64,000 bases of DNA, taken from contig CAZYSP010000001.1 of NCBI GenBank assembly GCA_964650285.1, positions 13,169 through 77,168 on the forward strand. Reading direction: 5' to 3'. Under the pieces are notes generated by a model. That model was not told where the DNA came from, did no database searches, and worked only from the letters and a program-made list of their open reading frames with translations. Numbering within the stretch: position 1 is the stretch's first letter; each line of letters opens with the position of its first letter. Origin of the DNA: an uncultured Methanosarcinales archaeon. Its GTDB lineage: Archaea > Nanobdellota > Nanobdellia > Woesearchaeales > GW2011-AR4. Shown piece by piece: positions 10,400 through 44,023 of this stretch. Both the position numbers and the translations under genes were made by a program.

Positions 10400-10532
10400 C
10401 GGGCTGTGCCAGAGCGAACTTAAGCCAAAATACTAATTTTAATATAAGATTTTTACATACTTTTGCCCACCCCACCTCCCCGTGAATTGCGAGCGACTCG
10501 CAGTCGCTCGTCGCGTTCACTAGGCGCAGCCC
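10400..10532. mobile_element. 133-nt intergenic element 'A' (cGGGCTGTGCC ... GGCGCAGCCC): 10-nt terminal inverted complement, 7-bp flanking direct repeat TAGATAA; MITE-like or structured ncRNA
   Basis: Termini GGGCTGTGCC (10401-10410) and GGCGCAGCCC (10523-10532) are fully complementary, including one G·U pair. TAGATAA sits at 10393-10399 and 10533-10539. An internal GC hairpin is at about 10484-10510. Its 5' 30 nt and a C-rich 3' block match element B at 53212..53352. Confidence 0.55.
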
Positions 10533-14551: not shown

Positions 14552-14720
14552 TGATAAGTACAATGATTAAAACTAATTAATTCAAAAATAAATTCGATAA
14601 AAAATAAAATAATATTAAAAAATAAAACTCCAATAAATGAAAAATACAATAATAAAAAACAATATCAATAAAAAAATAAATAAAATAATAATTAATAAAA
14701 AATAATAAAATAATATAAAA
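14552..14720 (+). repeat. AT-rich modular intergenic repeat (family M-a/M-b copy)
   Basis: Shares 'GTACAAT...' and 'AAAAATACAATAATAAAAAACAATATCAATAAAAAAATAAATAAAATAATAATTAAT' blocks with 18508..18668, 28346..28443 and 60784..60908. It abuts the fibrillarin ATG. Confidence 0.5.
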
Positions 14721-18507: not shown

Positions 18508-18668
18508 TTTAGAATAAAGTGTAAAAATAAAGTACAATAATAAAAATTCAATGAAAAATTATAAATAAAAAATTTCAATATAAAATAAAAACAATATCAA
18601 CAATTAAAAAATAAATAAAATAATAATTAATGAAAAATAAAAAAATAATAAAAAAAGAGGTGGGTAGT
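18508..18668 (+). repeat. AT-rich modular intergenic repeat (family M-a/M-b copy)
   Basis: 'AGTACAATAATAAAAATTCAAT' and 'AAAAACAATATCAACAA...AAATAAATAAAATAATAATTAATGAAAAATAA' blocks shared with the other copies. It ends with the SD-like GAGGTGG before the ATG at 18669. Confidence 0.5.
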
Positions 18669-27088: not shown

Positions 27089-27325
27089 AACAAATCATGG
27101 TTACCATGTTATTGGTAATCCAGTCGGTTTGTATGATAATAAATATGATCCAAATCCGAATAATTCAATAGAACAAGAAAGAGAGGTTATTGACCAGATA
27201 ACACGGTATTTAACTGAAATTGAAGGTCCTAGATACTTAAATTAACTGAATTCTATTTTTAATTTATTTGGTATCTTAAGAGGAATAATAGAAACCTTTA
27301 TATAGCCAAAAAAACCCCCTCTGAT

Positions 27326-28345
27326 ATGGTTGTACTTAAGAACTATAAAATTGCGACAATAGGATCTCATTCTGCATTGCAAATACTCAAAGGAGCGCAT
27401 GACGAGGGTTTTTCTACTATAGCGATATGTAAGAAAGGAATGGAAAGGCCATATAAGAGTTTTAAAGTTGCTGATAAGATAATTTCTGTAGATAATTATA
27501 AAGAACTTCTTAAAATACAAAATAAGCTGTTGAAAGAGAATGTGATTTTAATACCGCATGCTTCCTTTATTGCTTATATGGGTTATGAAGATGTAGAAAA
27601 GCTCAAGGTTCCGTATTATGGAAATAAAAAGATTTTGAGGTGGGAATCTGACAGGAATCTTGAAAGAAAGTGGCTAAAAGGTGCAGGTTTAAAGCTGCCT
27701 AAAATATTCAAGAACCCTAAGCAAATAGACAGGTCTGTAATTGTTAAGTTTCATGGTGCAAAAGGCGGCAAAGGTTATTTTATTGCAAAGAATTACAATG
27801 ACTTCAGGAAAAAGATAAAGCCCTATAAGGATGAGAAGGGCTATGTGATACAGGAATATATTTTAGGGGTTCCGTTGTTTATACATTATTTCTATTCTTC
27901 ATTGACTAATGAGTTAGAGATAATGGGTTTTGATAAAAGGTATGAGAGCAATGTTGACAGCTTAGGCAGGATTTCAGCAAGAGACCAGTTTGCGCTGGAA
28001 AAAGTGGATCCAAGCTATGTTATTGTTGGCAATATACCTGTTGTTGTACGTGAATCTTTTTTGCCAAGATTAATGGAAATGGGGGAAGCAGTTGTAAAAG
28101 AATCAAAGAAAATAACAGAGAAAGGCTTGTTCGGGCCTTTCTGCCTAGAGACTATTTTAACTCCAAAAGAAGAGATTATTGTTTTTGAAATCTCTGCAAG
28201 AATAGTAGCTGGAACAAATCCTTATGTAGGGGGAAGCCCTTATACCTGGATAAAATACGACGAGCCTATGAGCACTGGGAGAAGAATTGCCCGCGAGATT
28301 AAAATGGCTATTAAGGGGAATAAGTTGAATAAAGTGTTGGGGTAA
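27326..28345 (+). CDS. purP: 5-formaminoimidazole-4-carboxamide ribonucleotide (FAICAR) synthetase PurP, paralog 1
   Basis: 'IATIGSHSALQILKGAHDEGFSTIAIC' matches the PurP N-terminus. ATP-grasp fold, 339 aa. Confidence 0.8.
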   Translation: MVVLKNYKIATIGSHSALQILKGAHDEGFSTIAICKKGMERPYKSFKVADKIISVDNYKELLKIQNKLLKENVILIPHASFIAYMGYEDVEKLKVPYYGNKKILRWESDRNLERKWLKGAGLKLPKIFKNPKQIDRSVIVKFHGAKGGKGYFIAKNYNDFRKKIKPYKDEKGYVIQEYILGVPLFIHYFYSSLTNELEIMGFDKRYESNVDSLGRISARDQFALEKVDPSYVIVGNIPVVVRESFLPRLMEMGEAVVKESKKITEKGLFGPFCLETILTPKEEIIVFEISARIVAGTNPYVGGSPYTWIKYDEPMSTGRRIAREIKMAIKGNKLNKVLG

Positions 28346-28443
28346 GTACAATAAATAATATTTCAATAAAAGAGTTCCAATAATAAAAATTTCAATAAAT
28401 AAAAAATACAATAATAAAAAAACAATATCAATAAAAAATAATA
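28346..28443 (+). repeat. AT-rich modular intergenic repeat (family M-a/M-b copy)
   Basis: 'GTACAATAAATAATATTTCAAT...AAAAAATACAATAATAAAAAAACAATATCAATAAAAAATAATAAA' matches the copies at 14552, 18508 and 60784. Confidence 0.45.
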
Positions 28444-28589
28444 AAAAACATCAATAGCGACGCAAAACCAACGATTATTTAATAATAATATTTCAATGTT
28501 AAAAAGATATTATGTATAAAATAAAATAATGAGTTAACAAATAATTGTGAATCATAAGATAAAAATTCAATGAATAAAAAATAAATAAA
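28444..28589 (+). repeat. Conserved intergenic element with GC cores (M-c/M-d copy 1): ...CATCAATAGCGACGCAAAACC...AAAATAAAATAATGAGTTAACAAATAATTGTGAATCATAAGATAAAAATTCAATG...
   Basis: Near-identical blocks recur at 40345..40478 and 60294..60420, each running up to the start codon of a + strand gene. Confidence 0.6.
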
Positions 28590-29717
28590 ATGATAACATC
28601 ACAAAAAATAAAACAAATATTGGAAAATTATGATAAAAACAATATAACTATTGGGACTCTTGGAGGTCATTCTGCTCTTGATATTTGCAGGGGTGCAAAG
28701 CTGCATGGCTTTAAGACAGTAGCTGTTTGTCAACGAGGTAGGGAGAAAACATATGAAAAATATTACAGGACAAGGGGTGGTAAGGGAATAATTGATGAAA
28801 TTATTTTGGTTGATAAGTTTAAGGATATTGTCAAAAAGGATGTTCAGAAGAAGTTAAGAAGCTTGAATACAATTTTTATACACAATAGATATTTCTGGGT
28901 TTACTGCAATTTTAAGGAAATTGAGAATAAGTTTTTAGTTCCTATATTTGGTACAAGGGACATGGTAAAATTGGAAGAAAGGGATGTTCCAAAAAACCAG
29001 TATTATATGCTGCAGAAAGCTGGAATAAGGATTCCGAAAATTTTCAAGAATCCAAAACAAATAGACAGATTAGTTATTGTAAAAGTAGCAGAAGCTGCCA
29101 GAGGTTATGAAAGGGCATTCTTCTTTTGCACTAATTATAAAGGGTATTTAGAAAAATCAAAAGAACTTTTAGGGAAAAAAATAATAACAAAACAGGCACT
29201 TAAAAAAGCTGTTATTGAGGAGTATATTGTAGGAGCCCAGGTTAATTTTAATTATTTTTACAGTGCTTTGGATAATGAACTGGAATTAATGGGTACTGAT
29301 ACAAGAAGACAAACAAATTTGGATGGAATTTTAAGGTTACCAGCAACAGAGCAACTGGAAATTCTGAAATATTTAAAGCCAAAATTGATAGAGACAGGTC
29401 ATATTGCTGTTACAACAAAAGAGAGTATTTTAGAAAAAATATTTGATATTGGGGAAAAATTTGTTGCTGCAACTAAGAAATTGCATCAGCCTGGAATTAT
29501 AGGACCATTTGCACTGCAAGGTGCTGTAGTTGCAGAGAAAGGCAAGGAAGATATTGTAATATTTGATGTTTCTATGAGGATTCCTGGAAGTCCTGGAACT
29601 ATGTTTACACCGTACTCTGCTTATTTATACCACGAGCCAATTTCATATGGGGAAAGGGTTGCTATGGAAATAAGAAAAGCAGCAGATGATGATAAATTAG
29701 ACCTAATATGTACCTAA
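28590..29717 (+). CDS. PurP-family ATP-grasp enzyme, paralog 2 (FAICAR synthetase-like)
   Basis: 'ITIGTLGGHSALDICRGAKLHGFKTVAVC' is homologous to paralog 1 throughout. 375 aa. Confidence 0.75.
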   Translation: MITSQKIKQILENYDKNNITIGTLGGHSALDICRGAKLHGFKTVAVCQRGREKTYEKYYRTRGGKGIIDEIILVDKFKDIVKKDVQKKLRSLNTIFIHNRYFWVYCNFKEIENKFLVPIFGTRDMVKLEERDVPKNQYYMLQKAGIRIPKIFKNPKQIDRLVIVKVAEAARGYERAFFFCTNYKGYLEKSKELLGKKIITKQALKKAVIEEYIVGAQVNFNYFYSALDNELELMGTDTRRQTNLDGILRLPATEQLEILKYLKPKLIETGHIAVTTKESILEKIFDIGEKFVAATKKLHQPGIIGPFALQGAVVAEKGKEDIVIFDVSMRIPGSPGTMFTPYSAYLYHEPISYGERVAMEIRKAADDDKLDLICT

Positions 29718-29799
29718 AATGATTAAAGTATGTAAATTAAGTTTTAATATGGCTTTATATAATTTAAACCTACGAAATCATTAATATTAAAAATTTAAA

Positions 29800-31335
29800 A
29801 TGACTCAGATAATTGTTATTAATTTTGGATCACAAGTAGCACACTTAATAAATAGAAGAATCAGGGAATTAGGGGTTTTCTCAGAATTAGTGCCTTACAA
29901 TATAACTGCTGAAAAAATTAAAAAATTAAAACCAAAAGGGATTATTCTGTCAGGGGGTCCTGCATCGGTTTATGAAAAAAATTCTCCGCAAATTGATAAA
30001 AAAATCTTTTTATTAGGGATTCCTATCCTTGGTATTTGTTATGGCCTGCAACTTATAGGGAAAAATTATGGAAAAGTCTTGCCTGGGAAATTGAAGGAAT
30101 ACGGTAAAAGGAAATTGAAAGTTAAAAAGCAAGGAAAGTTGTTGAAAAAATTAAACAAAAAAGAGCAAATTTGGATGTCGCATGGCGACCTAGTTGCTTC
30201 ATTGCCAAAGGATTTTGAAATTTTAGGAAATACAGATACATGTAAAATAGCGGCTATGGAAAATAACAAAGCAAAGCTTTATGGCGTTCAGTTTCATCCA
30301 GAGGTCGTACATACTCCAAAGGGCATGCAGATTCTGAAAAATTTTGTTTTTGATATTTGCAAAGCAAAAAAGGACTGGAGTATTGATTTGGCATCAAAAC
30401 TGATTGGGGATGTTAAAAAAACTGTAGGGGGTAATGCTGTGATAATGGGAACTTCTGGCGGTGTTGACAGTACTGTTGCAGCTACATTAATTCATAAAGC
30501 AATTGGAAAGCGGTTATATTGTGTTTTCATTGATCATGGACTGATAAGAAAAAATGAAGCGAAAATAGTTATGGATAGGTTCAAAAAATTGAAATTTGAA
30601 AATGTGTATTTTGTAGATTCCAGCAGTGTTTTTTTGAATAAATTGAAAGGTGTTGTGGATCCTGAGGAAAAGAGAAAGATTATTGGACATACTTTTATTG
30701 AGGTTTTTGAAAAAAAGGTTTTGGAACTTGAGAAAAGGCATAAGGACATTAAATTTCTTGGGCAGGGGACTATTTATCCTGATAGAATTGAATCAGCGCA
30801 GCCAAGTAAGGAGGCTTCTAAGATAAAGAGTCATCATAATGTAACTTTACCAAAGAAAATGAAGCTAAAAATTATTGAGCCGTTGAAAGATTTGTATAAA
30901 GATGAGGTAAGGAAATTAGGCAAGGAACTAAAACTTCCCAGAGAAATTTTATACAGGCATCCATTTCCAGGTCCTGGATTGGCAATAAGAATTTTAGGAG
31001 ATGCAACAAAAGAAAGATTAGAGATTTTAAGAGATGCTGATCATATTTTTATGCAAGAATTAAAAAAATCTGGATGTTATGACAAGGTTTGGCAGGCTCT
31101 TGCAGCTTTGTTTCCAATAAAGGCAGTTGGTGTAAAAGGAGATGCAAGAACTTATGAGTATATAATAAGCTTAAGGGCTGTAACTTCAAAAGATGCAATG
31201 ACAGCAGACTGGGCAAAACTCCCTAACTCACTTCTAGAAAGAATTTCCTCAAGAATTTTGAATGAAGTCAAAGGTGTTAATAGAGTTGTTTATGACATTA
31301 GTCAGAAGCCACCTGCTACGATTGAGTATGAGTAA
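29800..31335 (+). CDS. guaA: GMP synthase, fused GATase + ATP-pyrophosphatase (bacterial-type single polypeptide)
   Basis: GATase 'GICYGLQL...HPEVVHT', PP-loop 'GTSGGVDSTV', and a C-terminal dimerisation domain ending 'PPATIEYE'. Confidence 0.9.
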   Translation: MTQIIVINFGSQVAHLINRRIRELGVFSELVPYNITAEKIKKLKPKGIILSGGPASVYEKNSPQIDKKIFLLGIPILGICYGLQLIGKNYGKVLPGKLKEYGKRKLKVKKQGKLLKKLNKKEQIWMSHGDLVASLPKDFEILGNTDTCKIAAMENNKAKLYGVQFHPEVVHTPKGMQILKNFVFDICKAKKDWSIDLASKLIGDVKKTVGGNAVIMGTSGGVDSTVAATLIHKAIGKRLYCVFIDHGLIRKNEAKIVMDRFKKLKFENVYFVDSSSVFLNKLKGVVDPEEKRKIIGHTFIEVFEKKVLELEKRHKDIKFLGQGTIYPDRIESAQPSKEASKIKSHHNVTLPKKMKLKIIEPLKDLYKDEVRKLGKELKLPREILYRHPFPGPGLAIRILGDATKERLEILRDADHIFMQELKKSGCYDKVWQALAALFPIKAVGVKGDARTYEYIISLRAVTSKDAMTADWAKLPNSLLERISSRILNEVKGVNRVVYDISQKPPATIEYE

Positions 31336-31343
31336 TAAGAGGT

Positions 31344-32777
31344 TTATTTTTCTTCCCACTTCAATATTGGTTTGCGAGCAGCAAGTACTGCATCTAATCT
31401 TTTTACAGGGGTTGTGGAAGGGGCGTTTTTTAGTAAATCGGGGTTTTGTTCTGCTTCCTGCTTTATTTTTATCATTGCTTCTGCAAATTTATCCATGGTT
31501 TGTTTTGACTCTGTTTCTGTTGGCTCTATCATTATTGCTCCATGGATAATTAATGGGAAGTAGATTGTTGGAGCATGAAAGCCGTAGTCCAATAAGCGCT
31601 TTGCAATATCTATTGTTGTTATGTTATTTGGCATGTTTTTGTCAGATAATACAAATTCATGCTTGCAGATAGTATCGTAGGGAAGATCGTAATGTTTTTT
31701 TAGCTTTGACATAAGGTAATTTGCATTCAGTACAGCGTTTTCTGCTACTTGTCTTAGACCTTCTGCACCGAGAGATTTAATATATGTATAGGCTTTTACT
31801 AAAACATTGAAGTTTCCATAAAAAACCCTAACCTGGCCAATGGAATTTTTTAAATTATAATCGAGGTAATAATTATCATTTTTCTTATTAATTAATGGTG
31901 TAGGTAAGTAATCTACTAATTCTTTAATGACGCCTACTGGACCTGAGCCTGGACCACCGCAGCCATGAGGGGTGGAAAAGGTTTTATGCAGATTAAGATG
32001 AACAATATCAAAACCCATGTCTGCAATCTTTACAATTCCGAGTATTGCATTAGCATTAGCGCCATCACAGTAGAATAATGAGCCATTGTCGTGCAGGATT
32101 CTTGCTATTTCCAGGATGTTTTTGTCAAATATACCTAAAGTATTTGGGTTTGTTAACATTAATCCTGCAACATCCTTAGTCATGTGTTTCTTTAAATCTT
32201 CTAAATCAATAATACCTTCATTGTTTGATTTGATTTGTATGGCTTCAAATTCACATAAAGCTGCAGAAGCAGGATTTGTTCCATGAGCTGAGTCAGGGAT
32301 TAGAATTTTGTTTCTTTTTTCATTTTTTATTTCAAAATATTTTTTTATGATCATTACTCCTGTAAGCTCGCCATGTGAGCCAGCTGCTGGTTGTAAAGTA
32401 AACCTTTGCATGCCAGTAATTTCGCACAAATCTTTTTCTAATTCATAAATAAGTTGTAAAGCACCCTGATTTAATTCCGGGGCAAGAGGATGTATCGCAG
32501 TAAATCCTGGAAGTTTTGCTATATCCTCATTTATTTTAGGATTGTACTTCATTGTGCATGAGCCTAGAGGATAAAATCCATCATCAACTCCAAAATTTCT
32601 TTTTGATAATTCTGTATAATGCCTGACTACATCAACTTCAGAAAGTTCTGGAAGCTCTAATTCAGTTCTAAGCAAAGATTTTGGTATTAAATCTGCTTTT
32701 TCTGGTACATCTAATTCTGGAAGCTCAACTCCTGTTCTTCCTTTTGATGTTTTTTCAAAAATTAATTTCATTTTCAA
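31344..32777 (-). CDS. gcvPB: Glycine dehydrogenase (decarboxylating) subunit 2
   Basis: PLP-lysine region '[24 protein letters not shown]'. Confidence 0.9.
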
Positions 32778-32887
32778 TAAATTTTATTTTCAATTATTTT
32801 GTTTACAATAAATTTTTTAAATTAATCAATAATAATTATTTTTATTTCAATGATTTTTTTGTATTATATAATTAAATTAATGAAACT

Positions 32888-34210
32888 TTAATCTAACTCA
32901 TTTGACAAAACCTCAACTAATTTATCAATATCCTCTTTTGAGTGCATCTCAGTAATACATACGAGCAAGTGATTTTTTAGTTCTGGATAATATTTTCCCA
33001 AATCAAGTCCTGGAACAATATTGTTTTCCTGCATTTTTGAGATTAATTTTTCAATATCATTGCATTTTATGACAAATTCATTAAAAAATGGAGAGGTAAA
33101 AGGTGCAGCAAAATTATCAATATTTTTTATTTTTTCAAAGGTATAGTGTGCTTTTTGTAAATTAATGTTTGCTAAAGTTTTTAGCTGCTTGCCCAGCATT
33201 GAGAGATAAACTGTTGCAGCAAGAGCCATTAATGCCTGGTTGGTGCATATGTTGGAAGTTGCTTTTTCTCTTCTGATATGCTGCTCGCGGGCCTGTAAAG
33301 TCAATACAAAACCTTTTTTTCCTTCAGTATCATTAGTAATACCGACTATTCTGCCAGGAATCTTTCTCGTATGCTCTTCCTTAACAGCCATGAATCCAAA
33401 AGCAGGGCCTCCGAAGTTTAATGGAATTCCAAAAGACTGGCCGTCTCCAACAACAATATCTGCATTACCAGACTTTGATATTCCAAGAGAAGCAGCTTCA
33501 ACAATGCAAGTTACTAATAGTGATTTATTTTCATGAGTAATTTTTTCAATCTCATCCATGTTTTCTATGCAGCCAAAGAAATTAGGGTTCTGGACAATAA
33601 CTGCTGAGGTGTTATCATCAATTTCATTTTTTAAATTTTCAATATCTATGATTCCGTTATTATAATTAATCTCAACACAATTAATATTATGCATTCTACA
33701 GTATGTCTGCACAACTTTTCTGTATTCTGGATGTATTGTTTTTGGAAGGATAATTTTGTTTTTGTTTGTAATATTATGTGACATAAATACTGCTTCTGCC
33801 AGTGCTGTTGAGCCGTCATACATTGATGCGTTTGCAACATCCATTCCTGTAAGTTTACAAATGTATGTCTGAAATTCAAAAATTGATTGTAATGAGCCCT
33901 GGCTTATCTCCGGCTGGTAAGGTGTGTAAGCGGTATAGAATTCTGACCTCGATATTATATGGTCAACAACTGCTGGTATAAAATGGTTATAGCAACCAGC
34001 CCCTAAGAAATTTTTCATTAATTTGTTTTTTTTGGAAATTTTTTCAGTTTTTTTCCTTACCTCAATTTCAGATAATTTAGTTGAGATTTTTAACTGCTCT
34101 TTTGATATTAAATTTTTATCAACATCACTGAAAAGGTTTAGAATATTATCTACACCAATTTCCTTAAGCATTTCATTTTTTTCTGGTTCTGTGTTTGAGA
34201 TGTAGTCCAT
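32888..34210 (-). CDS. gcvPA: Glycine dehydrogenase (decarboxylating) subunit 1
   Basis: A typical P-protein alpha-subunit N-terminal half ('YTPYQPEISQGSLQ'). Confidence 0.9.
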   Translation of the reverse strand: MDYISNTEPEKNEMLKEIGVDNILNLFSDVDKNLISKEQLKISTKLSEIEVRKKTEKISKKNKLMKNFLGAGCYNHFIPAVVDHIISRSEFYTAYTPYQPEISQGSLQSIFEFQTYICKLTGMDVANASMYDGSTALAEAVFMSHNITNKNKIILPKTIHPEYRKVVQTYCRMHNINCVEINYNNGIIDIENLKNEIDDNTSAVIVQNPNFFGCIENMDEIEKITHENKSLLVTCIVEAASLGISKSGNADIVVGDGQSFGIPLNFGGPAFGFMAVKEEHTRKIPGRIVGITNDTEGKKGFVLTLQAREQHIRREKATSNICTNQALMALAATVYLSMLGKQLKTLANINLQKAHYTFEKIKNIDNFAAPFTSPFFNEFVIKCNDIEKLISKMQENNIVPGLDLGKYYPELKNHLLVCITEMHSKEDIDKLVEVLSNELD

Positions 34211-34593
34211 TATTCTTTCTCAATTATTTTTGTATATTCTTCAGCAGATATCATGCTGTTAAGCTCATTTTTGTCTGCAAGCTTTATTTTAAAGAGCCAT
34301 CCTTTGTTGTATGGATCATTGTTTATTATCTCAGGATGGTCTTTGAGCTGCTCATTTATCCTGATTATTTCTCCGGAAACAGGGGCAAATATGTCTGAAA
34401 CAGACTTAACGGATTCTATTGTGGCAGCTGTTTTATTTTGTGTAACAGTTTTCCCTATTTCAGGGAGCTCAACAAAAACAATGTCAGTTAAGGCATTTTG
34501 TGCAAAATCCGTAATTCCTATTGTGGCTATGTCATTTTCTATTTTTACCCATTCATGCTCTTTGGTGTATTTCAATTCTTTTGGATTCTCCAT
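34210..34593 (-). CDS. gcvH: Glycine cleavage system H protein (lipoyl carrier)
   Basis: Lipoyl-lysine motif 'ESVKSVSDIFAPVSGEI'. 127 aa. Confidence 0.9.
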   Translation of the reverse strand: MENPKELKYTKEHEWVKIENDIATIGITDFAQNALTDIVFVELPEIGKTVTQNKTAATIESVKSVSDIFAPVSGEIIRINEQLKDHPEIINNDPYNKGWLFKIKLADKNELNSMISAEEYTKIIEKE

Positions 34594-34594
34594 T

Positions 34595-35704
34595 TCATTT
34601 TCCTCCTTTATACTTGTAAAAAGGCTTTTTTACAATTACAGCATTGTAGAATTTGTCCCTTATTTTTATAGTTATTTTATTTCCAATTTGAGAATGCTCT
34701 TTTTTTATTAATGCCATACCCAATGGTTTTCTAAATGTAGGTGAGAAAGTTCCGGATGTAACATAACCTATGTTTTTATCATGCACAAAAACTTCGTAAT
34801 TTGCCCGGGGAATGCCTCTGTCAATCATTTCAAATGCAACAAGTATTTTTTCTGTTCCATACTTTATTTGTTTTTCAAGAATTGATTTACTGATAAAATC
34901 TTTTTCCAGGTTTACAGCCCAGTCTAAGCCTGATTCAATTGGAGTTATCTTCTCGCTTATCTCATGGCTGTAAAGGGGATAACATGCCTCGATCCTTAAG
35001 GTGTCTCTGGCGCCTAAACCAATAGGTTTTAATCCCTGGTCTTTTCCTACTTCCATTAATGAATTCCACATTTTTTCTGCTTCTTTTGATGAAAAATATA
35101 ATTCAAAACCATCTTCTGCAGTATAGCCTGTCCTGGAGACTAGTGTTTTTATACCTATAATATCTGCTTCAATGAAATGGAATCTTTTAGGAAGTTCTGC
35201 AGTGGTTAATTTTTTCAATATTTTTTCAGCCAAAGGTCCCTGAAGGTCCAGCTTTCCGGTTTTTTCTGATATGTTGCTTATTTCCACATTAAATTTATCT
35301 GCATGGCTTTTGATCCAATTAAAATCCTTGTCTATATTGCCTGCATTTACTACAAGCATAAACTCATTTTCTTTTAATTGGTAAACAAAAATATCGTCTA
35401 CAGTTGTGCCATTCTCATAACACATCAAAGAATACATGGCTTGTCCTGGGTATATTTTATTAAGATTGCTGACAATAAGCTTCTGGAGGAATGATATTGA
35501 ATCCGGACCCTGAATAATAAATTCTCCCATGTGGCATACATCAAACAAACCTGCTTTTTCTCTTGTTGCTGTATGCTCATCCATTACATTTGTGTAATAT
35601 ACAGGCAGGTGCCAGCTGTTAAAAGCTACCATCTTGGCTCCTAACTGCTCGTGCACATGAGCTAAAGGAGTTTTTTTTAGAGAAATTATGATTATTCCAA
35701 ACAC
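34595..35704 (-). CDS. gcvT: Glycine cleavage system T protein (aminomethyltransferase)
   Basis: 'KKTPLAHVHEQLGAKMVAFNSWHLPVYY' is the canonical GcvT N-terminus. Confidence 0.9.
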   Translation of the reverse strand: MFGIIIISLKKTPLAHVHEQLGAKMVAFNSWHLPVYYTNVMDEHTATREKAGLFDVCHMGEFIIQGPDSISFLQKLIVSNLNKIYPGQAMYSLMCYENGTTVDDIFVYQLKENEFMLVVNAGNIDKDFNWIKSHADKFNVEISNISEKTGKLDLQGPLAEKILKKLTTAELPKRFHFIEADIIGIKTLVSRTGYTAEDGFELYFSSKEAEKMWNSLMEVGKDQGLKPIGLGARDTLRIEACYPLYSHEISEKITPIESGLDWAVNLEKDFISKSILEKQIKYGTEKILVAFEMIDRGIPRANYEVFVHDKNIGYVTSGTFSPTFRKPLGMALIKKEHSQIGNKITIKIRDKFYNAVIVKKPFYKYKGGK

Positions 35705-35788
35705 CCCAGCTTTCAGAAAAGAGTTCGTTTAAATAATTTTTGAATATTATGATTGTGTTAAAAATTTCAAGAACAAATATTGTGCTTT

Positions 35789-37345
35789 TCAGCATTTAAC
35801 TGCATATGTCCTTCCATTGATGCCTTTCCTGTAGTTTTCCCATGATTTCCTAAACAGTCTTTTTCCCCACGGTGTTGGATAGTCGCAGGTAATGCAGGCT
35901 GTGCATAAATTATTTTTAGGCAGTCCTATTGCTTTTACCAGCCCTTCCACTGTCTGGTATATTAATGACTCTGCTCCTGCATCTTTTGCAATCTTCTGGC
36001 AGGTTTTTTTGCTGATATTGCTGGTAACAGGCTTTTTTTCATATTTGGGAACAAGAAGCTCAGAAACAGTTGACATATCAATGCCATAAAAACAAGGACC
36101 CCTGATAGGCGGACATGTAACTCTCAGATGAACTTCTTTTGCGCCGCCTTCTTCTTTCAGGTAGCGGACAAGCTGCATTGTTGTGCTGCCGCGGACAATG
36201 CTGTCATCGACAAGCAGGACTTTTTTTCCTCCAAGAACATTTTTTAATGCCGTATATTTGTTCTGCACTTTGTCGTGCCTTGAGCCGCCTTCTATGAAGG
36301 TTCTTCCAACATACCTGTTCCTTATAATCCCTTCCTTAGAGGGGATTCCCAGCTCATAAGCATAAGCATCTCCTGCTGCTTTTGCTGTATCCGGAACAGG
36401 AACAACAATCAGATCCTTATCTATTCTTTGAGTTTCGAGTTTTGCTAATTCCTTGCCAAGGTTTGTCCTTGCAGTATATACTGACTTATTATCCAAAACT
36501 GAACCGACATTTGAGAAGTAAACCCATTCAAACATGCAGTGAGCTTTTCTTTTGGTCTGCGTGTATTTTCTAACCTCGACCTTGCCTTTTTTGATATGTA
36601 TCATATACCCTGGCTGCAACGGCTTTATATTCTTTATTCCGCAGTTTATCAAAGCAACGCTTTCGGAAGCAACCATAAATGTATTTTTGTCTTTGCTGAA
36701 TCCATAAACAAGAGGCCTAAAGCCGTAAGGGTCTCGGGCAACAGCAATTTCTCCCTCTGCGTTTATGAAAGCAATGTTGTAACAGCCGTCAAACTTTTTT
36801 GCCAGTTCTGAGAAAACCTTAACTAAATCCGGCCTTTTATCACCCTTTAATTGTCTTGCTAAAAAATGCATTATTATCTCTGTATCATTATCATAAATCA
36901 TATGATAATCTTCTCTTTTACTCAAAAGCTCCTGTTTTAACTGTGAGAAATTCGCAAGGTTGCCGTTGAGTCCAAAAGCAAACCATTTCCATTTTCTTCC
37001 ATGATGCCTTTCAAATGGCTGTGCAACACCTACATCTTCAGTTCCGGATGTTGCATAACGTACATGCCCTATTCCTTTTTTTCCTGCATATTTTTTAAAT
37101 ATTTCAAAGCTTTTTCTCTTATTGCTTGTCTTAAAGACCTCGTTTACGTGGCCTAAGTCCTTATAAGTGGCCAGTAGCTGGGACCTGTTTGGGTTGAATG
37201 TTGTAACACCTGCACTTAATTGACCTCTGTTTTGTAAGTTCAGCATCAGTTTGTATAGGTAGAACAAGGCTTTGTTTGCGGCATCTCCATCTTGTTTGAT
37301 ATAAACAGCGCAGATGCCGCACTCGTCATGTATGTCTTCCAGCAT
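35789..37345 (-). CDS. purF: Amidophosphoribosyltransferase
   Basis: An N-terminal Ntn-type Cys after a short propeptide ('MLEDIHDE|CGI'). PRTase motif 'VLLVDDSIVRGSTT'. C-terminal 'CTACITCDYP' Fe-S Cys cluster. Confidence 0.85.
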   Translation of the reverse strand: MLEDIHDECGICAVYIKQDGDAANKALFYLYKLMLNLQNRGQLSAGVTTFNPNRSQLLATYKDLGHVNEVFKTSNKRKSFEIFKKYAGKKGIGHVRYATSGTEDVGVAQPFERHHGRKWKWFAFGLNGNLANFSQLKQELLSKREDYHMIYDNDTEIIMHFLARQLKGDKRPDLVKVFSELAKKFDGCYNIAFINAEGEIAVARDPYGFRPLVYGFSKDKNTFMVASESVALINCGIKNIKPLQPGYMIHIKKGKVEVRKYTQTKRKAHCMFEWVYFSNVGSVLDNKSVYTARTNLGKELAKLETQRIDKDLIVVPVPDTAKAAGDAYAYELGIPSKEGIIRNRYVGRTFIEGGSRHDKVQNKYTALKNVLGGKKVLLVDDSIVRGSTTMQLVRYLKEEGGAKEVHLRVTCPPIRGPCFYGIDMSTVSELLVPKYEKKPVTSNISKKTCQKIAKDAGAESLIYQTVEGLVKAIGLPKNNLCTACITCDYPTPWGKRLFRKSWENYRKGINGRTYAVKC

Positions 37346-37497
37346 TTTACCCCAACAGATTATAACGGATTGTGATTTATAAACGTTTCCCTTTTTAAAA
37401 CTTTGTTAGGTTACCCAAAAAGGCAAGATTAAGACTGAATGAAACAAAAATAATTTAAAGAAAGTTAGATAATTTATCCCATATATTGTGTGGTTTT

Positions 37498-38793
37498 ATG
37501 AATATTTTGTTAATTGGCAACGGCGCAAGAGAGCATGTAGTAGCAGAGACTCTAAAGAAAAATAAAGCTGTTAAGTTATATTCTTTTATGAAGTCAAAAA
37601 ATCCAGGGATTGCTTCTTTATCTGAAGATGTTTTGGTTGGTTCTTATTCTGATCTTGATGGTATAAAAGATTTTGCAGAGAAAAATAAAATTGATTTTGC
37701 CTTTATAGGCCCTGAAGACCCATTAAATAATGGAGTAGTTGATGCATTAAAAGACATTGGAATTGATGCTGTTGGCCCGACAAAGAGCATGGCCAGGTTA
37801 GAAACAAGTAAATCATTTACAAGAGAATTGTTAAAAAAATATGATATTGAAGGTAATATCAAGTTCAAGGTTTTTAGTAAAGCTGATGGGATAAATGGTT
37901 TTCTTGATGAAATTGATGAAGTTGTTGTAAAGCCGGATGGCTTAACTGGCGGGAAAGGAGTTAAAGTGCAGGGTGACCATTTCAATACAAAAGAAGAAGC
38001 AGCTGAATACTGCAAAGAAGTTTTAGAAAATGATTCATCTGTAATAGTTGAAGAAAAACTGGATGGAGAGGAATTTTCATTGCAATGTTTAACAGACGGG
38101 AAAACTGTTGTTGGAGCACCAGTTGCGCAGGACCATAAAAGGGTTTATGATGATGATAAAGGGCCTAATACCGGAGGCATGGGATCTTATTCCTGCGAGA
38201 ATCATTTATTGCCATTTCTTAAGAAAGAGCATGTTGATAAAGCACTGGAAATAACAAAAAAGGTTGCTGATGCTATTTATCAAGAAACAGGTTTGTATTA
38301 TAAAGGAGTTATGTATGGTGGTTTTATTTTAACAAAAGAGGGTATTAAGCTTTTGGAGTATAATGCAAGACTTGGAGATCCAGAGGCTATGAATGTTCTG
38401 CCTTTGCTTAAGACAGATTTTGCAGCTATATGCCAGGCAATAATTGTGCAGGAACTTGATAGAGTTAAGGTTGAATTTGAGAAAAAAGCTACAGTATGCA
38501 AGTATGTTGTGCCAGAAGGTTATCCTGAAAATCCAGTTAAGAATGAAAAAATAACAGTAAAAATTCCTGAAAAAACAAGAATATACTATGCATCTGTTGA
38601 CCAAAAAGAAGATGGATTATATATGACTGGCTCAAGGGCAATTGCATTTTTAGGCATTGGAAATAATTTAGATGAAGCAGAAAAGGTTGTAGAAGAGTCT
38701 GTTTGTAATGTAAAAGGCAAGGTATTTCACAGGAAAGATATTGGGACTAAGGGATTGATTGAGAAAAGGATAAAGCATGTAAAAAGTTTTTAG
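37498..38793 (+). CDS. purD: Phosphoribosylamine--glycine ligase
   Basis: 'MNILLIGNGAREH' (PurD N-terminus) and an ATP-grasp core. The ORF track begins at a TTG 4 codons upstream. Confidence 0.85.
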   Translation: MNILLIGNGAREHVVAETLKKNKAVKLYSFMKSKNPGIASLSEDVLVGSYSDLDGIKDFAEKNKIDFAFIGPEDPLNNGVVDALKDIGIDAVGPTKSMARLETSKSFTRELLKKYDIEGNIKFKVFSKADGINGFLDEIDEVVVKPDGLTGGKGVKVQGDHFNTKEEAAEYCKEVLENDSSVIVEEKLDGEEFSLQCLTDGKTVVGAPVAQDHKRVYDDDKGPNTGGMGSYSCENHLLPFLKKEHVDKALEITKKVADAIYQETGLYYKGVMYGGFILTKEGIKLLEYNARLGDPEAMNVLPLLKTDFAAICQAIIVQELDRVKVEFEKKATVCKYVVPEGYPENPVKNEKITVKIPEKTRIYYASVDQKEDGLYMTGSRAIAFLGIGNNLDEAEKVVEESVCNVKGKVFHRKDIGTKGLIEKRIKHVKSF

Positions 38794-38794
38794 G

Positions 38795-39367
38795 ATGAAA
38801 CAGACATTAAAACAGGAAATTTCTGGAAAAAGAAAAACACTTAGTAAAGAAGAAGTTATTAAGAAAAGCAAGTTAATAAAGAAAAATCTATGTTCTTTAT
38901 CTGAATTTAAGAAAGCCAGGAATATTATGTTCTATGTTTCTTTTAATAATGAGGTTGATACGCATGAGGTTATTAAAGAACTGTTAAGCGAGAAAGAAAA
39001 AAATATTATTGTTCCATATGTATTAAAAAACAATCCAATCCTGCAACTTTCTGAAATAAGAGATTTTAATGAATTAGAACCTAAAAGTTTTGGTATTTTA
39101 GAGCCGAGAGAACTTTACATTAGAGAATTCAATCCTAATAAAATTGATTTGGTTATATTGCCTGGCTTGGTGTTTGACAAAAAAGGATGCAGAGTAGGCT
39201 ATGGATATGGATATTATGACAGGTTTCTTAAAAAAGTTAAGAAGGTGAAAAAAATCGGGCTTGCTTTTGAATTGCAGTTAGTTGATGAAATTCCTAAAGA
39301 AAAGCATGATGTTCCTGTCGATATTCTGGTTACTGAAAAAAGAGTTCTCAAATGTAGTGGGAAATAA
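38795..39367 (+). CDS. 5-formyltetrahydrofolate cyclo-ligase (MTHFS)
   Basis: 'ILPGLVFDKKGCRVGYGYGYYDRFL' is the 5-FTHF cyclo-ligase signature. Confidence 0.75.
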   Translation: MKQTLKQEISGKRKTLSKEEVIKKSKLIKKNLCSLSEFKKARNIMFYVSFNNEVDTHEVIKELLSEKEKNIIVPYVLKNNPILQLSEIRDFNELEPKSFGILEPRELYIREFNPNKIDLVILPGLVFDKKGCRVGYGYGYYDRFLKKVKKVKKIGLAFELQLVDEIPKEKHDVPVDILVTEKRVLKCSGK

Positions 39368-39370
39368 AAA

Positions 39371-40246
39371 ATGCCTAAGTTAATGCAAAGAAAACCGGAT
39401 TGGTTCAAGATTAAACTGCCAACTGGAGAAAAGTATAGTGAAGTAAAAGGTTTAGTAAAGACAAATAGATTGAATACTATATGCGAGGAAGCTAAATGCC
39501 CAAATATTTCTGAGTGTTGGAGTCATGGAACTGCTACTTTTCTTATTTTAGGGCATGTTTGTACAAGATATTGCAGCTATTGTAATGTTAAGACTGGAAA
39601 ACCTTTAGATGTTGATGCTGATGAAGGAAAAAAAGTTGCTGACAGTGTTAAGAAACTGGGCTTAAGGTATGTTGTTGTAACTTCTGTAACAAGGGATGAT
39701 TTAGAAGATGGTGGTGCTTCATTGTATGTTGATGTAATAAAAGAAATTAAGAAAGTAAGCTCATGTAAAGTTGAGTTATTGATTCCGGATTTGAAAACAA
39801 AAGATGGAATTGATGTTGATGCTTTAAAAAAAATAATTGATGCAAAACCAGATGTTCTTGGTCATAATATTGAAGCAGTAAGAAGTGTTTTTTCAGAAGT
39901 AAGAAAAGGTGGTAATTATGATGTTTCATTGGAGTTATTAAAAAAAATAAAAGAAATTGATGCTGATATGAGAACAAAATCGGGGATTATGGTTGGTTTT
40001 GGTGAAAGTTTTGATGAGATTAAAGAAACAATGCAGGATTTAAGGGATGTTGGTGTTGATTTTTTAACAATAGGGCAGTATTTGCAGCCTTCTGAGAAGC
40101 ATGCTAAAATCATCAGGTTTTACAGGCCAGAAGAATTTGAAGAATTAAAGAAAATCGGTTTGGAAATGGGATTTAAGCATGTTGAAGCTGGGCCATTGGT
40201 TAGGAGCTCTTACAGGGCTGATAAGCTGAATTCATTGATACAATAA
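39371..40246 (+). CDS. lipA: Lipoyl synthase
   Basis: 'CEEAKCPNISECW' (auxiliary cluster) and 'CTRYCSYCNV' (radical-SAM CxxxCxxC). Confidence 0.9.
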   Translation: MPKLMQRKPDWFKIKLPTGEKYSEVKGLVKTNRLNTICEEAKCPNISECWSHGTATFLILGHVCTRYCSYCNVKTGKPLDVDADEGKKVADSVKKLGLRYVVVTSVTRDDLEDGGASLYVDVIKEIKKVSSCKVELLIPDLKTKDGIDVDALKKIIDAKPDVLGHNIEAVRSVFSEVRKGGNYDVSLELLKKIKEIDADMRTKSGIMVGFGESFDEIKETMQDLRDVGVDFLTIGQYLQPSEKHAKIIRFYRPEEFEELKKIGLEMGFKHVEAGPLVRSSYRADKLNSLIQ

Positions 40247-40344
40247 AAAAATTCCAATAAAGTTAAGAAACATAATACTGATTATTTGATTAAGATAAAA
40301 ATTAATTTACAATTAGAAAATAAAAACGCAATAAAAATAAAATA

Positions 40345-40478
40345 AAAAACATCATTACTGCGACGCAAAATGCTTGATTTATTAATAATAAAATTTCAAT
40401 GTCCAAAAGAAATAAAGTTAAAAATAAAATAATGAATTAATAAATAATTGTGAATCATAAGATAAAAATTAATGAAAA
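40345..40478 (+). repeat. Conserved intergenic element with GC cores (M-c/M-d copy 2)
   Basis: 'AAAAACATCATTACTGCGACGCAAAATGCTTGATTTATTAATAATAAAATTTCAATG...AAAATAAAATAATGAATTAATAAATAATTGTGAATCATAAGATAAAAATTAATG', immediately 5' of the lplA ATG. Confidence 0.6.
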
Positions 40479-41279
40479 ATGAAATGCAGATTTATTGATA
40501 CTGGGTTTAATGATGCTTTTTTTAATATGGCTATAGATGAGGCTATTTTGCATTATTGTAAAATTCCTGTTTTAAGGGTTTATGGCTGGAAACCTGCTGG
40601 AGTATCTATTGGATACAATCAGGATTTACATAAAGAAATAAACATTGATTACTGCAAAAAAAACAATATAGATGTAGTAAGGAGAGTAAGTGGTGGTAAA
40701 GCGGTTTTTCATGACAAGGAACTAACTTACAGTTTCATTATTCCAGAGAGCATTAATTTATTACCAAGAGAAATTAATGAATCATACAAAGAAATAGCAA
40801 AAGCATTGGTTTTGGCATTTGAAAAATTAGGCATTAAAGCGGAAATAAAAAAAATTCCAGAGAGGATTGCAACTTCTATATGCTTTAACAGCTCAAACTG
40901 GTATGAGTTGTTGATTAATGGGAAAAAAATTTCTGGTTCTGCACAAAGAAGGATGGATGGAAAGATACTGCAGCATGGCTCAATACTTTTAGATTTTGAT
41001 TATGAGAAAAATAGCTTGTTATTTAATTCTAATAATTTAATTGACAATATTAATAATTTAAGAAAAAGGATTACATCATTAAAAAAAGAATTGAATAAAT
41101 CAATAGATTACAGTGAGCTTGGTTCTGCATTAAAATCTGGTTTTAGGGAGAATTTTGATTTTGATTTAATTGATGATTCTTTAACAAATGAAGAGATTAT
41201 TTTGGCTGAGAAATTAAGGAAAGAGAAGTATTTGACAGAAGAATGGAATTACAAATTGATATGGGAAAATTTAATATAA
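40479..41279 (+). CDS. lplA: Lipoate-protein ligase A (BPL/LPL catalytic domain)
   Basis: 'RRVSGGKAVFHD','GKKISGSAQRR' are LplA/LipB-family motifs. Confidence 0.8.
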   Translation: MKCRFIDTGFNDAFFNMAIDEAILHYCKIPVLRVYGWKPAGVSIGYNQDLHKEINIDYCKKNNIDVVRRVSGGKAVFHDKELTYSFIIPESINLLPREINESYKEIAKALVLAFEKLGIKAEIKKIPERIATSICFNSSNWYELLINGKKISGSAQRRMDGKILQHGSILLDFDYEKNSLLFNSNNLIDNINNLRKRITSLKKELNKSIDYSELGSALKSGFRENFDFDLIDDSLTNEEIILAEKLRKEKYLTEEWNYKLIWENLI

Positions 41280-41378
41280 ATTTTCCCTAGTTCAGTAAAG
41301 TTTTCACTACGTTCAAACTTTATAAACTAACAAAAACTATTTAAATAAAGTTGAATTTGGGTTTTTCAGGGTGGTTTA

Positions 41379-42680
41379 ATGTATGATATGATGGCTTCTA
41401 TTGAAAAGTCTGATTCTAAGGTATATGAGATTATAAAAAAAGAAGTTGAGAGGATGAAGAATGGTGTTGAGTTAATTCCTTCTGAGAATGTTGTCAGCAA
41501 AGCTGTGCTGCAGGCAATGGGTTCTGTTTTAACTAATAAATATTCAGAAGGCTATCCTCACAAGAGGTATTATGGCGGAAATGAGATTATTGATATGGCA
41601 GAAGACTTGGCTATTGAAAGAGCCAAGAAGCTTTTTGGAGCAGAGCATGTTAATGTACAGCCATATTCAGGAAGCCCTGCTAACCAGGCTGTTTTCTTTG
41701 CTTTGCTGAACTTAAAGGATACTTTTATGGGTTTTGACTTAAGCGCAGGCGGTCATTTAACGCATGGAAGCCCTGTTAATTTTTCCGGTAAAAACTATAA
41801 TTGTGTTGCTTATAATGTTGATAAGGAAACTGAGTTACTAGATTATGATAAGATTAAGAAGCAGGCAGAAAAAGTAAAGCCCAAGATGATTATTTCCGGG
41901 TTAACTGCTTATCCAAGGAAAATAGATTTTAAGGCTTTTCAGGAAATTTGTGATTCTGTTGGTGCTTATCATATGGCTGATATTGCGCATATAGCTGGAT
42001 TATGCGCTACTGGTGTTCATGAAAATCCTGTTAGGTATACTGATATTGTTACAACCACTACACATAAAACTTTGCGCGGTCCAAGAGGAGCAATGATAAT
42101 GTGCAAGATTGAGGATAAATTTGATAAGAATGGGAAGAAAAATCTTGCGCAGAAAATTGATTCTGCTGTTTTTCCGGGCTTACAGGGAGGTCCTCATGAC
42201 AATGTTAATATTGCAAAAGCAGTTGCATTTGGAGAGGATTTAAAGCCTGAGTTTAAGGTTTATTGCAGGCAGATTGTAAAAAATGCCAAGGTTTTGGCAG
42301 ATTCTTTGATGAGTAATGGTTTAGAGCTTGTAACTAACGGGACTGACAACCATCTGATGGTCATCAAGCTTGTAAACAAAGGTTTGACTGGTAAGGGGAA
42401 AGAGGTGCAGAATGCATTAGATAAAGCAGGAATAACTATAAATAAGAATACTGTACCATATGAGCCTGGAAGTCCGTTTCATCCTTCAGGAATAAGGTTA
42501 GGGACACCAGCTGTAACAACAAGAGGAATGAAAGAAAGTGAAATGAAAGTTATTGGTAAAAGCATAGCAAAAGTAATTGATAATTTAGATGATAATAAGG
42601 TTATTGGAAATGTTAAAAAGGATATACTGGAATTATGCAAAAGGTTTCCGCTTTATCCGGGATTTGATATTTTAAAATGA
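41379..42680 (+). CDS. glyA: Serine hydroxymethyltransferase
   Basis: 'LIPSENVVS','NKYSEGYP','TTTTHKTLRGPRG' (PLP-Lys). Confidence 0.9.
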   Translation: MYDMMASIEKSDSKVYEIIKKEVERMKNGVELIPSENVVSKAVLQAMGSVLTNKYSEGYPHKRYYGGNEIIDMAEDLAIERAKKLFGAEHVNVQPYSGSPANQAVFFALLNLKDTFMGFDLSAGGHLTHGSPVNFSGKNYNCVAYNVDKETELLDYDKIKKQAEKVKPKMIISGLTAYPRKIDFKAFQEICDSVGAYHMADIAHIAGLCATGVHENPVRYTDIVTTTTHKTLRGPRGAMIMCKIEDKFDKNGKKNLAQKIDSAVFPGLQGGPHDNVNIAKAVAFGEDLKPEFKVYCRQIVKNAKVLADSLMSNGLELVTNGTDNHLMVIKLVNKGLTGKGKEVQNALDKAGITINKNTVPYEPGSPFHPSGIRLGTPAVTTRGMKESEMKVIGKSIAKVIDNLDDNKVIGNVKKDILELCKRFPLYPGFDILK

Positions 42681-43519
42681 CTGCAAAAATAATTGATGGG
42701 AAGGCTTTGTCATTAAAGTTTCTTAATGATGTTAGGAAGAAGGCTGCTAATGTAAAACCCGGGTTGGCTATTGTTATTGTAGGGAATAATCCTGCTTCTG
42801 AGATTTATGTAGGCCTTAAGGAGAAAAAATCCAAGGAAATCGGATTTTATGTTGAAAGGTATAATCTGGATGAAAATGTTAAACAGGATGAATTGCTTAA
42901 GTTAGTTGATGAATTGAACCAGAACAGGAAAATAAATGGGTTTATTGTTCAACTGCCATTGCCTAAGCATATTGATGAGAATCTTGTAATTGATTCAATA
43001 CTGCCTCACAAGGATGTAGATGGATTTACTCCTGTTAGTTTAGGAAATTTGGTTAATGACAATAATTTATTACTGCCGGCTACTGCCAGGGCTTGTTTAG
43101 AGCTGATTAAGTCTACTGGTGTTGAGATTAAAGGCAAGAATGCAGTTGTTGTTGGCAGAAGCAATATTGTTGGAAAGCCAACTGCTTTACTTTTATTGCA
43201 GGAAAATGCTACTGTTACTGTTTGCCATTCAAAAACTAAAGATCTTAAGGAATTTACTAAAAATGCTGATATTCTGGTTGTTGCGGTTGGAAAAGCAAAG
43301 ATGCTCAAGAAAAACATGGTCAAAAAAGGTGCAGTAGTAATTGATGTCGGAATAAACAGAACTGCTTTTGGAATTGTTGGAGATGTTGATTTCGAAAACG
43401 TAAAAGAAGTTTCTGGTTTTATTACTCCGGTTCCCGGTGGAGTTGGACCAATGACAATTGCTATGCTTCTTGATAATACTTTGAAAGCTAGGGAGTTGAG
43501 GAAGGGGCTTAAGTTTTAG
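42677..43519 (+). CDS. folD: Bifunctional 5,10-methylene-THF dehydrogenase/methenyl-THF cyclohydrolase
   Basis: 'KIIDGKALS','LAIVIVGNNPASEIYV','VVGRSNIVGKP','GGVGPMTIAML'. Confidence 0.9.
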   Translation: MTAKIIDGKALSLKFLNDVRKKAANVKPGLAIVIVGNNPASEIYVGLKEKKSKEIGFYVERYNLDENVKQDELLKLVDELNQNRKINGFIVQLPLPKHIDENLVIDSILPHKDVDGFTPVSLGNLVNDNNLLLPATARACLELIKSTGVEIKGKNAVVVGRSNIVGKPTALLLLQENATVTVCHSKTKDLKEFTKNADILVVAVGKAKMLKKNMVKKGAVVIDVGINRTAFGIVGDVDFENVKEVSGFITPVPGGVGPMTIAMLLDNTLKARELRKGLKF

Positions 43520-43537
43520 AGAAAAGAATTAATAATG

Positions 43538-44023
43538 TTAAGGTTTTAATACATATGAAGAGAAAGCTTTAGATATTCTGCTGTTATAAATGGTTTCAGA
43601 TAAAGAATTCAAAAATTTGCTTCTTGGTATATAATACCACTTACCACTCATTTCAAGTTTGTTCCATTTTTCTTTATCTGAATCTTTATCTGAATTCTTA
43701 TATGCAACCTCAAATCTAGCCAAACCAGTGTCTATACCTAATGAAGTAATTATAAATCCCAGAGTAAGATTATAATCACCATTTATGGCACTTGTAAATG
43801 ACAGTAACTTAGCAATATCTGAACCTATAGCAACAACATCTAATGCGCGTGTTCTAACAAAAGTCTCCAAGTTTGGTTTAGGTATTGGTATATTCATTTT
43901 AATATGAGGTAATCCTACTGAATATTTAAAATTATTGAAAACTACTTTATCAAATTCCACCCCCAAAACCTTTATAAACTTCCATAATTTCTCTTTATTA
44001 CCGGTGGTTGTGTTGTTAAACAT
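43538..44023 (-). CDS. Hypothetical protein (start uncertain)
   Basis: A 187-aa minus-strand ORF fills the 416-nt folD-purN gap. Its N-terminal 26 codons are antisense to the purN 5' region, so the start is set at Met27 (44023). No motif recognised. Confidence 0.3.
   Translation of the reverse strand: MFNNTTTGNKEKLWKFIKVLGVEFDKVVFNNFKYSVGLPHIKMNIPIPKPNLETFVRTRALDVVAIGSDIAKLLSFTSAINGDYNLTLGFIITSLGIDTGLARFEVAYKNSDKDSDKEKWNKLEMSGKWYYIPRSKFLNSLSETIYNSRISKAFSSYVLKP

Follow-up and report, generated by a model that had tools for sequence, protein, structure and literature searches.

A non-coding module of about 125 nt (up to about 135 nt when aligned), referred to here as the cassette, is present in three copies on the + strand of the window, by which we mean the whole 64-kb stretch of DNA analysed, and the genes directly 3′ of these copies are purP2 (c1), lplA (c2) and rpl18e (c3). 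Exactly three window sites were recovered by nhmmer, confirming the three copies seen in the first-pass annotation, and a fourth was not found, since all other nhmmer matches in the 64 kb were no better than E = 2. The three copies are located as follows.

Copy c1, 28444-28577, + strand, between purP1 (stop at 28345) and purP2 (ATG at 28590); nhmmer span 28446-28576, E = 4e-31
Copy c2, 40345-40478, + strand, between lipA (stop at 40246) and lplA (ATG at 40479); nhmmer span 40348-40477, E = 2e-27
Copy c3, 60284-60420, + strand, between tRNA-Leu(GAG) (60155-60242) and rpl18e (ATG at 60421); nhmmer span 60284-60419, E = 4e-29

The products of the downstream genes match the Pfam families DUF1246/DUF1297 (the PurP domains), LplA-B_cat and Ribosomal_L18, respectively, and purP2 is the second, tandem purP paralogue. 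Copies c1 and c2 lie within a large cluster of purine synthesis, one-carbon, glycine cleavage and lipoylation genes, and c3 heads the rpl18e-rpl13-rps9 operon. A-rich spacers are found 5′ of c1 (28346-28443, with CAATAA repeats) and 5′ of c2 (40247-40344), and a tRNA-Leu(GAG) was called by ARAGORN 5′ of c3. This 88-nt tRNA is an ARAGORN match, yet scanning the entire window with Rfam at gathering scores gave no tRNA match. The biosynthetic cluster (27326-45250), which contains the two tandem purP paralogues, guaA, gcvT, gcvH, gcvPA, gcvPB, purF and purD as well as MTHFS, lipA, lplA, glyA, folD and purN, is unusually complete for a DPANN (Woesearchaeota-like) genome; the DPANN lineage is generally regarded as biosynthetically reduced.

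Within the window the copies are 74-82% identical in pairwise comparison, indicating that they are not very recent, and their homology ends at the start codon. The conserved sequence stops 7-8 nt before the ATG of lplA and rpl18e and 20 nt before that of purP2, and across all sites, including those in other species described below, the distance from the cassette end to the start codon is 0-20 nt. In c1 and c2, the homologous unit begins about 12 nt 5′ of CGACGC, at AAAAAACATCAWTA. The 28-nt core AATAATGANTTAANAAATAATTGTGAAT has exactly three occurrences in the window compared with none in 100 shuffles, and exact window matches to CGACGCAAAA are confined to the three cassette copies. The cassette is made up of the following parts.

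Block A, CGACGCAAAA(CC/TG), which in c1 reads CGACGCAAAACC
Block B, TTGATTATTTAATAATAA..TTTYAATG, which in c1 reads GATTATTTAATAATAATATTTCAATG
Blocks A and B together, 28458-28498 (c1), 40361-40401 (c2) and 60297-60340 (c3), + strand
Variable linker of about 20 nt, between blocks B and C
Block C, the 35-nt core AAAATAAAATAATGARTTAAYAAATAATTGTGAAT, 28519-28553 (c1), 40422-40456 (c2) and 60361-60395 (c3), + strand
Variable linker of 6 nt, between blocks C and D
Block D, ATAAAAA(A)TTNAATGRA, 28560-28577 (c1), 40463-40478 (c2) and 60402-60420 (c3), + strand, the 3′ edge of the cassette

The ATG within block D is out of frame with the gene, the true start codon being 7-20 nt further 3′. The consensus blocks given in the first-pass annotation are correct, but they are not universal, as block A is missing in copy c5 (see below). 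Of the GC cores that had been singled out, TTGTGAAT is indeed conserved, but CATAAG turned out to be one of the variable linkers, and the GC content of the window is 34% rather than the ~30 % assumed for their context.

Only 2 of the 35 columns of block C are variable, compared with 40 of 88 elsewhere (Fisher p = 1.4e-5). The core carries a dyad around TTAA together with repeated TGAAT motifs, and the two variable positions flank TTAA as mirror positions (ATTAAC in three copies, GTTAAC in c1 and ATTAAT in c2). This mirror variation, which was noticed post hoc, would fit a DNA dyad, and the same two changes, both transitions, would also fit a weak 7-bp hairpin; both observations are suggestive only. 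Block C is a candidate recognition site and is probably bound by a factor. When considered as an operator, the cassette has the dyad, but the conserved unit is ~125 nt long and the gene set is functionally mixed, and the orthologous lplA, nitroreductase and purC loci of relatives are without the element.

Copies in other species and at orthologous sites

The same copies are present in more than 10 independent metagenome assemblies (L001-L010, L013, L014, L017 and L107-L109), among which the differences amount to one SNP and two small indels, and c2 in nine other assemblies is identical except for one SNP. This recurrence rules out an assembly artefact. Two strain differences in these spacers, both slippage-type indels, are a 25-nt insertion (AATAAAATTTTCAATAAAAAACAAT) 3′ of tRNA-Leu in L013, L108 and L109 (compared with window 60245-60259) and a 7-nt duplication (ATAAAAA) in block D of c1 in strain L017 (compared with window 28559-28567).

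Open-ocean metagenome assemblies, from TARA Oceans and others (JGI), also contain proteins of the window, whose homologues are named Woesearchaeota or Nanoarchaeota. Samples with this organism come from TARA Oceans meso- and bathypelagic stations and from deep water at Station ALOHA. The nearest named genomes are two 'Candidatus Woesearchaeota archaeon' MAGs (GcvT identity 73% and 68%), in which the element sites fall outside the available contigs. The exact core pattern had no match in 185,579 species-representative genomes and none in the IMG/VR viral contigs; in the JGI metagenome contigs, the core turned up in two further contexts (c4 and c5) besides the three already known. This metagenome scan gave eight stretches, and L012, L015 and L018 were discarded as chance core-only matches (nhmmer E 0.01-0.1, one inside coding sequence). 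Profiles run with nhmmer over 1.74 Mb of fetched loci returned only the known copies. There are three copies in ~80 kb of contiguous DNA (the window with flanking stretches of ~9.5 kb and ~7.7 kb from other assemblies) and no copy in a further ~21 kb (L120), probably of the same species, and the known total is four full copies and one partial. The feature is real, reproducible and lineage-restricted. The two copies outside the window are as follows.

Copy c4, flanked by an mtnA-like gene and, on the 3′ side, a nitroreductase gene, in L011 (L115 is the same locus), from what is probably a sister species of the window organism
Copy c5, degraded, in L016 (a Global Ocean Sampling contig), before purC, without block A

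The sister species is represented by assembly SDBV01 and sample BAEC19-1. An LplA with 78% identity to that of the window was recovered from the two samples that also yielded the c4 contigs, and the coding DNA of the c4 species is 76-85% identical to that of contigs co-occurring with the window species, with EF-1alpha the highest at 85%. Copies c3 and c4, although located at non-orthologous sites in the two species, are 86% identical by global alignment and 89% by BLAST. Thus, the cassette is more conserved between the species than their coding DNA. In c5 the flanks have diverged and block A is deleted, yet the last 28 nt of the core (from AATAATGA) are exact, the two substitutions being in its first seven positions. 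Since c5 aligns with the whole 232-nt c2 spacer, beyond the cassette alone, the complete intergenic region can be the copied unit.

At the lipA-lplA junction, the element is present in none of four relatives (LplA identity 72-79%), in which the junction is occupied as follows.

L098, overlapping genes
L104, a 13-nt gap
L102, a plain 139-nt A-rich spacer
L100, an inserted minus-strand ORF, then a canonical promoter

The mtnA-nitroreductase site in two related lineages (L117-L119, and L120-L122, the latter probably the window species) has an SRPBCC gene and a 12-nt gap without any cassette, and between the filled and unfilled c4 sites the homology is back 5 nt before the nitroreductase start codon. 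The absence of the element from the orthologous junctions examined in relatives points to a spread after speciation. Together with c4 and c5 in other species, it also upholds the first-pass view of a dispersed repeat 5′ of functionally unrelated genes, as opposed to ordinary promoter convergence. A purine regulon was tried and rejected, because two more species of this clade lack the element at the purE-purC junction; one of them came from a sample in which a close relative of the window strain is also present.

Genes of mobile elements were noted in relatives (L102 5409-6437, L103 5367-6437 and L113 1972-3231). A reverse-transcriptase (RVT_1) ORF has been inserted beside purD, and in one relative a tyrosine-integrase gene also adjoins rps3Ae, indicating that mobile-element activity reshapes the same regions.

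Promoter, folding and leader properties

For the promoter analysis, a local PWM was derived by a seeded, iterative procedure from ~24 promoters of the window upstream regions. The consensus is AAAAACATTTATATAT (examples at window 27290-27305, 55575-55590 and 486-501), and its sites, with scores of 9-16.6 bits, begin 36-42 nt 5′ of the ATG, a spacing that implies mostly leaderless mRNAs; the leadered minority of window genes has GGTG or GGGTG Shine-Dalgarno (SD) motifs. No conserved canonical BRE/TATA (at least ~9 bits, 36-42 nt before the start) was found in the cassette on either strand, the PWM maxima being 6.4 bits (c2, at -95) and 4.8 bits (c1, at -109). In the block A/B region, CAAAACC is similar to the BRE half of this local promoter (7.2 bits in c1, c3 and c4, -0.2 in c2), and the TATA half at canonical spacing from it scores -4 to -12 bits. 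CAAAACC is followed by an AT-rich palindrome (ATTATT-T-AATAAT), with a conserved ATG, the one ending block B, 33-36 nt downstream. With no canonical BRE/TATA in the cassette, its promoter activity is assumed, not seen.

Elsewhere in the window, the divergent spacer 9295-9411, between a phosphoribosyltransferase-like gene and an amino-acid-kinase-family gene, contains the perfect palindromes GGAAATCAAGATTTCC and AGAAAATGCTTTAAAGCATTTTCT between two canonical promoters; they are candidate operator sites.

The 3′ block (AAATAATTGTGAAT...ATAAAAATT) had been proposed in the first-pass annotation as a BRE/TATA promoter giving near-leaderless transcripts. It is A/T-rich and located 10-40 nt before start codons, and leaderless transcripts are the rule in this genome; however, it scores 2.5 bits at most with the local PWM, and its matches begin too close to the ATG (20-23 nt, compared with 36-42 nt for the promoters), so that the TSS would fall inside the gene. 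The distance from block to start also differs by 13 nt among the copies, which is unsuited to leaderless starts, and we consider such a promoter highly unlikely. The small cis-encoded RNA that had been offered as another possibility found no support either. The cassette has no Rfam match at the gathering score or at E ≤ 10, the MFE z-scores of the two strands (-0.4 to +1.1 at 37 °C and 5 °C, of which the latter is closer to the habitat temperature) show no excess over shuffled sequence, and the alifold consensus is -0.35 kcal/mol with zero compensatory pairs and no covarying helix. A structured cis-regulatory RNA (riboswitch-like, for example in purine/one-carbon sensing) or an independent small RNA gene would have some appeal in that three of the five downstream genes belong to, or are located within, purine/one-carbon metabolism (purP2, lplA, which adjoins glyA and folD, and purC), but rpl18e and the nitroreductase gene would be out of place in a purine regulon, and no terminator or canonical promoter bounds a small RNA gene on either strand. 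Such an RNA is extremely improbable, and this reading can be called close to refuted.

A close rival to the DNA-level reading that we prefer (see below) is an RNA-level intercistronic or 5′ leader that lacks a promoter and relies for its transcription on that of the upstream gene or tRNA. It would form an unstructured, A-rich, SD-less initiation region, and an RNA-binding protein or an antisense RNA would bind its core and thereby set the translation or processing of the downstream cistron. The missing canonical promoter in the cassette speaks for it, as does the fact that purP1, the gene just upstream of c1, has the best promoter of the window (16.6 bits). In c1 and c2, the interval from the upstream stop codon to the cassette has no oligo-T run, which would allow transcripts from upstream promoters to read through, and none of the three genes is preceded by an SD motif of the kind used by the leadered window genes. 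The two transitions in the core also preserve the pairing of the 7-bp AU-rich hairpin. In addition, the sense-strand AT skew of the cassette (0.25-0.29) is nearer to that of A-rich intra-operon spacers (0.36-0.47; rpl18e-rpl13 and gcvPA-gcvPB were compared, which are presumably transcribed) than to that of promoter regions (0.05), and this A excess fits an RNA-level role at least as well as a DNA-level one. On the other hand, folding at 37 and 5 °C is no stronger than in shuffled sequence, the hairpin adds next to nothing to it, a mere unstructured leader needs no 33 invariant bases out of 35, and plain A-rich spacers elsewhere do the same job without a core. The three conserved out-of-frame AUGs would, moreover, compete with the true start codon. 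We regard such a leader as possible, though somewhat unlikely.

The A-rich sense-strand spacers are a feature in their own right. They occur at window 14552-14720, 18508-18629, 28346-28443, 40247-40344 and 60784-60908, and at L102 9862-10000 and L110 9855-10000, after stop codons and between co-directional genes, including the inside of conserved operons (rpl18e-rpl13). They carry YCAATAAA and TTCAATRA motifs, with an AT skew of 0.36-0.47, and have no canonical promoter, SD or oligo-T run. YCAATAAA sites on the + strand are enriched in intergenic DNA, which holds 11 of the 17 and makes up 15% of the window. Such spacers could be SD-less intercistronic leaders or a 3′-end signal. They resemble the cassette in their sense-strand A excess and in having neither an SD nor a canonical promoter; they also share motifs such as AAAATTCAATGA with it, and c1 and c2 are embedded in spacers of this kind. 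Unlike the cassette, which has four conserved blocks including the invariant 35-nt core and a GC-containing block, the generic YCAATAAA spacers are of low complexity and are not alignable between sites.

Several further candidates were tried and rejected. The ORFs that begin at the three conserved ATGs are short (2-24 codons) and not conserved, and a minus-strand ORF of 18-20 codons, present in c1 and c2, is without a start codon in c3 and c4. Long-range pairing of blocks B and C was dismissed because the complementary 10-mers are in different registers in each copy. A C/D-box sRNA, an SD-like role of GTGAAT and a dif or att site were rejected as well.

Comparison with dispersed repeats and mobile promoters

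A selfish or neutral dispersed repeat (MITE-like, or produced by recent segmental copying) would have no host role, and its conservation would reflect recent spread or gene conversion. Such a repeat would agree with the confinement to one narrow lineage, the patchy presence at orthologous sites, the strain indels in and near the element and the lack of a clear shared function among the target genes. However, inverted repeats were checked within each copy and no terminal ones were found, no target-site duplication is visible at the c4 replacement site, and the copy number (three in ~80 kb, none in the further ~21 kb) is low. All five sites have the same orientation and abut the start codon, the conservation is block-wise (p = 1.4e-5), and, even though the copies are not very recent, the degraded c5 has retained the final 28 nt of the core unchanged. 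The cassette thus showed none of the features by which MITE/REP-like elements are recognized, namely inverted repeats or a hairpin, target duplication, both orientations and many copies, and we judge a selfish or neutral origin to be distinctly unlikely. Correia elements, ERIC and REPIN, which are cited in the account of mobile promoters discussed below (PMC3575422), are likewise short dispersed bacterial intergenic repeats able to bring expression signals to neighbouring genes, but they have terminal inverted repeats or hairpins, a high copy number and both orientations, none of which were found in the cassette.

A closer match is provided by the putative mobile promoters (PMPs) of Matus-Garcia, Nijveen and van Passel (2012), for which the criterion is that non-paralogous genes share upstream sequence of at least 50 nt with an identity of 80% or more (PMC3575422). 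In the account given there, PMPs are shared between related taxa, are not tied to a known mobile element and have no Rfam match; they form an operational class, mainly bacterial, whose promoter activity is mostly putative, and the screen covered -150 to -50 (PMC3575422). In our case, c1 and c2 are 82% identical over 117 aligned nt and c3 and c4 86%, every pair is more than 90% identical over a stretch of >50 nt comprising block C and its flanks, and PurP, LplA, ribosomal L18e, nitroreductase and SAICAR synthase belong to different Pfam families. By this operational definition, and as judged from sequence, the cassette is a new archaeal case of a reused upstream region or putative mobile promoter. 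It has in common with the PMPs as described there (PMC3575422) that highly similar non-coding DNA stands before non-paralogous genes within a genome and is shared by related taxa, with neither a link to a known mobile element nor an Rfam match, but differs in that it is found in an uncultured DPANN archaeon, is without the canonical BRE/TATA of its host and reaches the start codon.

Among archaeal sequences, the intergenic repeats of halovirus HF2 (29 and 58 bp), with promoter activity in all nine tested (PMC8707807), are also AT-rich and placed before genes. The HF2 repeats are conserved in sequence and position among relatives and are syntenic in a viral genome (PMC8707807), in contrast to the cassette, which is ~125 nt long, chromosomal and non-syntenic between species, and whose promoter activity is putative.

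A second small repeat was noticed at window 10401-10434 and 53212-53245, in two long intergenic regions. Its two sites are 85% identical over 34 nt (GGGCTGTGCCAGAGC..ACT.AAG.CAAAAT.CT) and have no Rfam match.

A possible reused 5′ control cassette

Taken together, the sense orientation to the downstream gene and the position abutting its start codon at five of five independent sites, the different state of these sites in relatives (tight operon coupling, another gene or another kind of upstream region) and a constraint greater than that of coding DNA argue for a reused 5′ expression module. The explanation that we favour, tentatively and with somewhat less than even confidence, is a DNA-level cassette of ~125-135 nt that combines a non-canonical promoter with an operator, the 35-nt core being the putative binding site. 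The cassette would have been copied against the start codons of unrelated genes within one narrow marine Woesearchaeota-like lineage, sometimes along with the A-rich spacer in front of it, through recombination or copy-paste of intergenic DNA rather than transposition. It would supply the downstream gene with its own expression signal, uncoupled from the upstream gene. Transcription would most likely begin inside the cassette, from a non-canonical A/T-rich promoter for which the BRE-like CAAAACC together with the AT-rich block B is the best candidate, and the core would then also ride in an A-rich leader without an SD. Binding of a sequence-specific factor to the core may place purP2, lplA and the rpl18e operon under common control, and in relatives also the nitroreductase gene and purC. 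The missing canonical promoter, the small number of known copies and the lack of a clear common function among the target genes count against this DNA-level reading. A functional theme is possible: purP2, lplA and purC, three of the five, either belong to or adjoin the purine and one-carbon pathways, and one of the other two encodes a ribosomal protein.

A bolder and rather unlikely extension is that the cassette represents an undescribed archaeal portable control module, in which a promoter-poor, unstructured leader/operator has its core read by a lineage-specific factor. Such a module would couple ribosomal-protein, purine and one-carbon/lipoylation genes to one growth signal, and would be placed precisely at start codons, between sites and between species, without the hallmarks of a transposon.

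To our knowledge, gene regulation in DPANN archaea is almost unknown, since these organisms are uncultured. A cassette copied before a ribosomal-protein operon and before purine and lipoylation genes would be a concrete instance of expression rewiring by the reuse of non-coding DNA in Archaea. Its 35-nt core is a defined bait for regulator discovery, and it draws attention to the unusual A-rich spacers of this clade, which have neither promoter nor SD. The practical impact of the cassette is limited, because copies are few, the host range is narrow and an experimental system is lacking.
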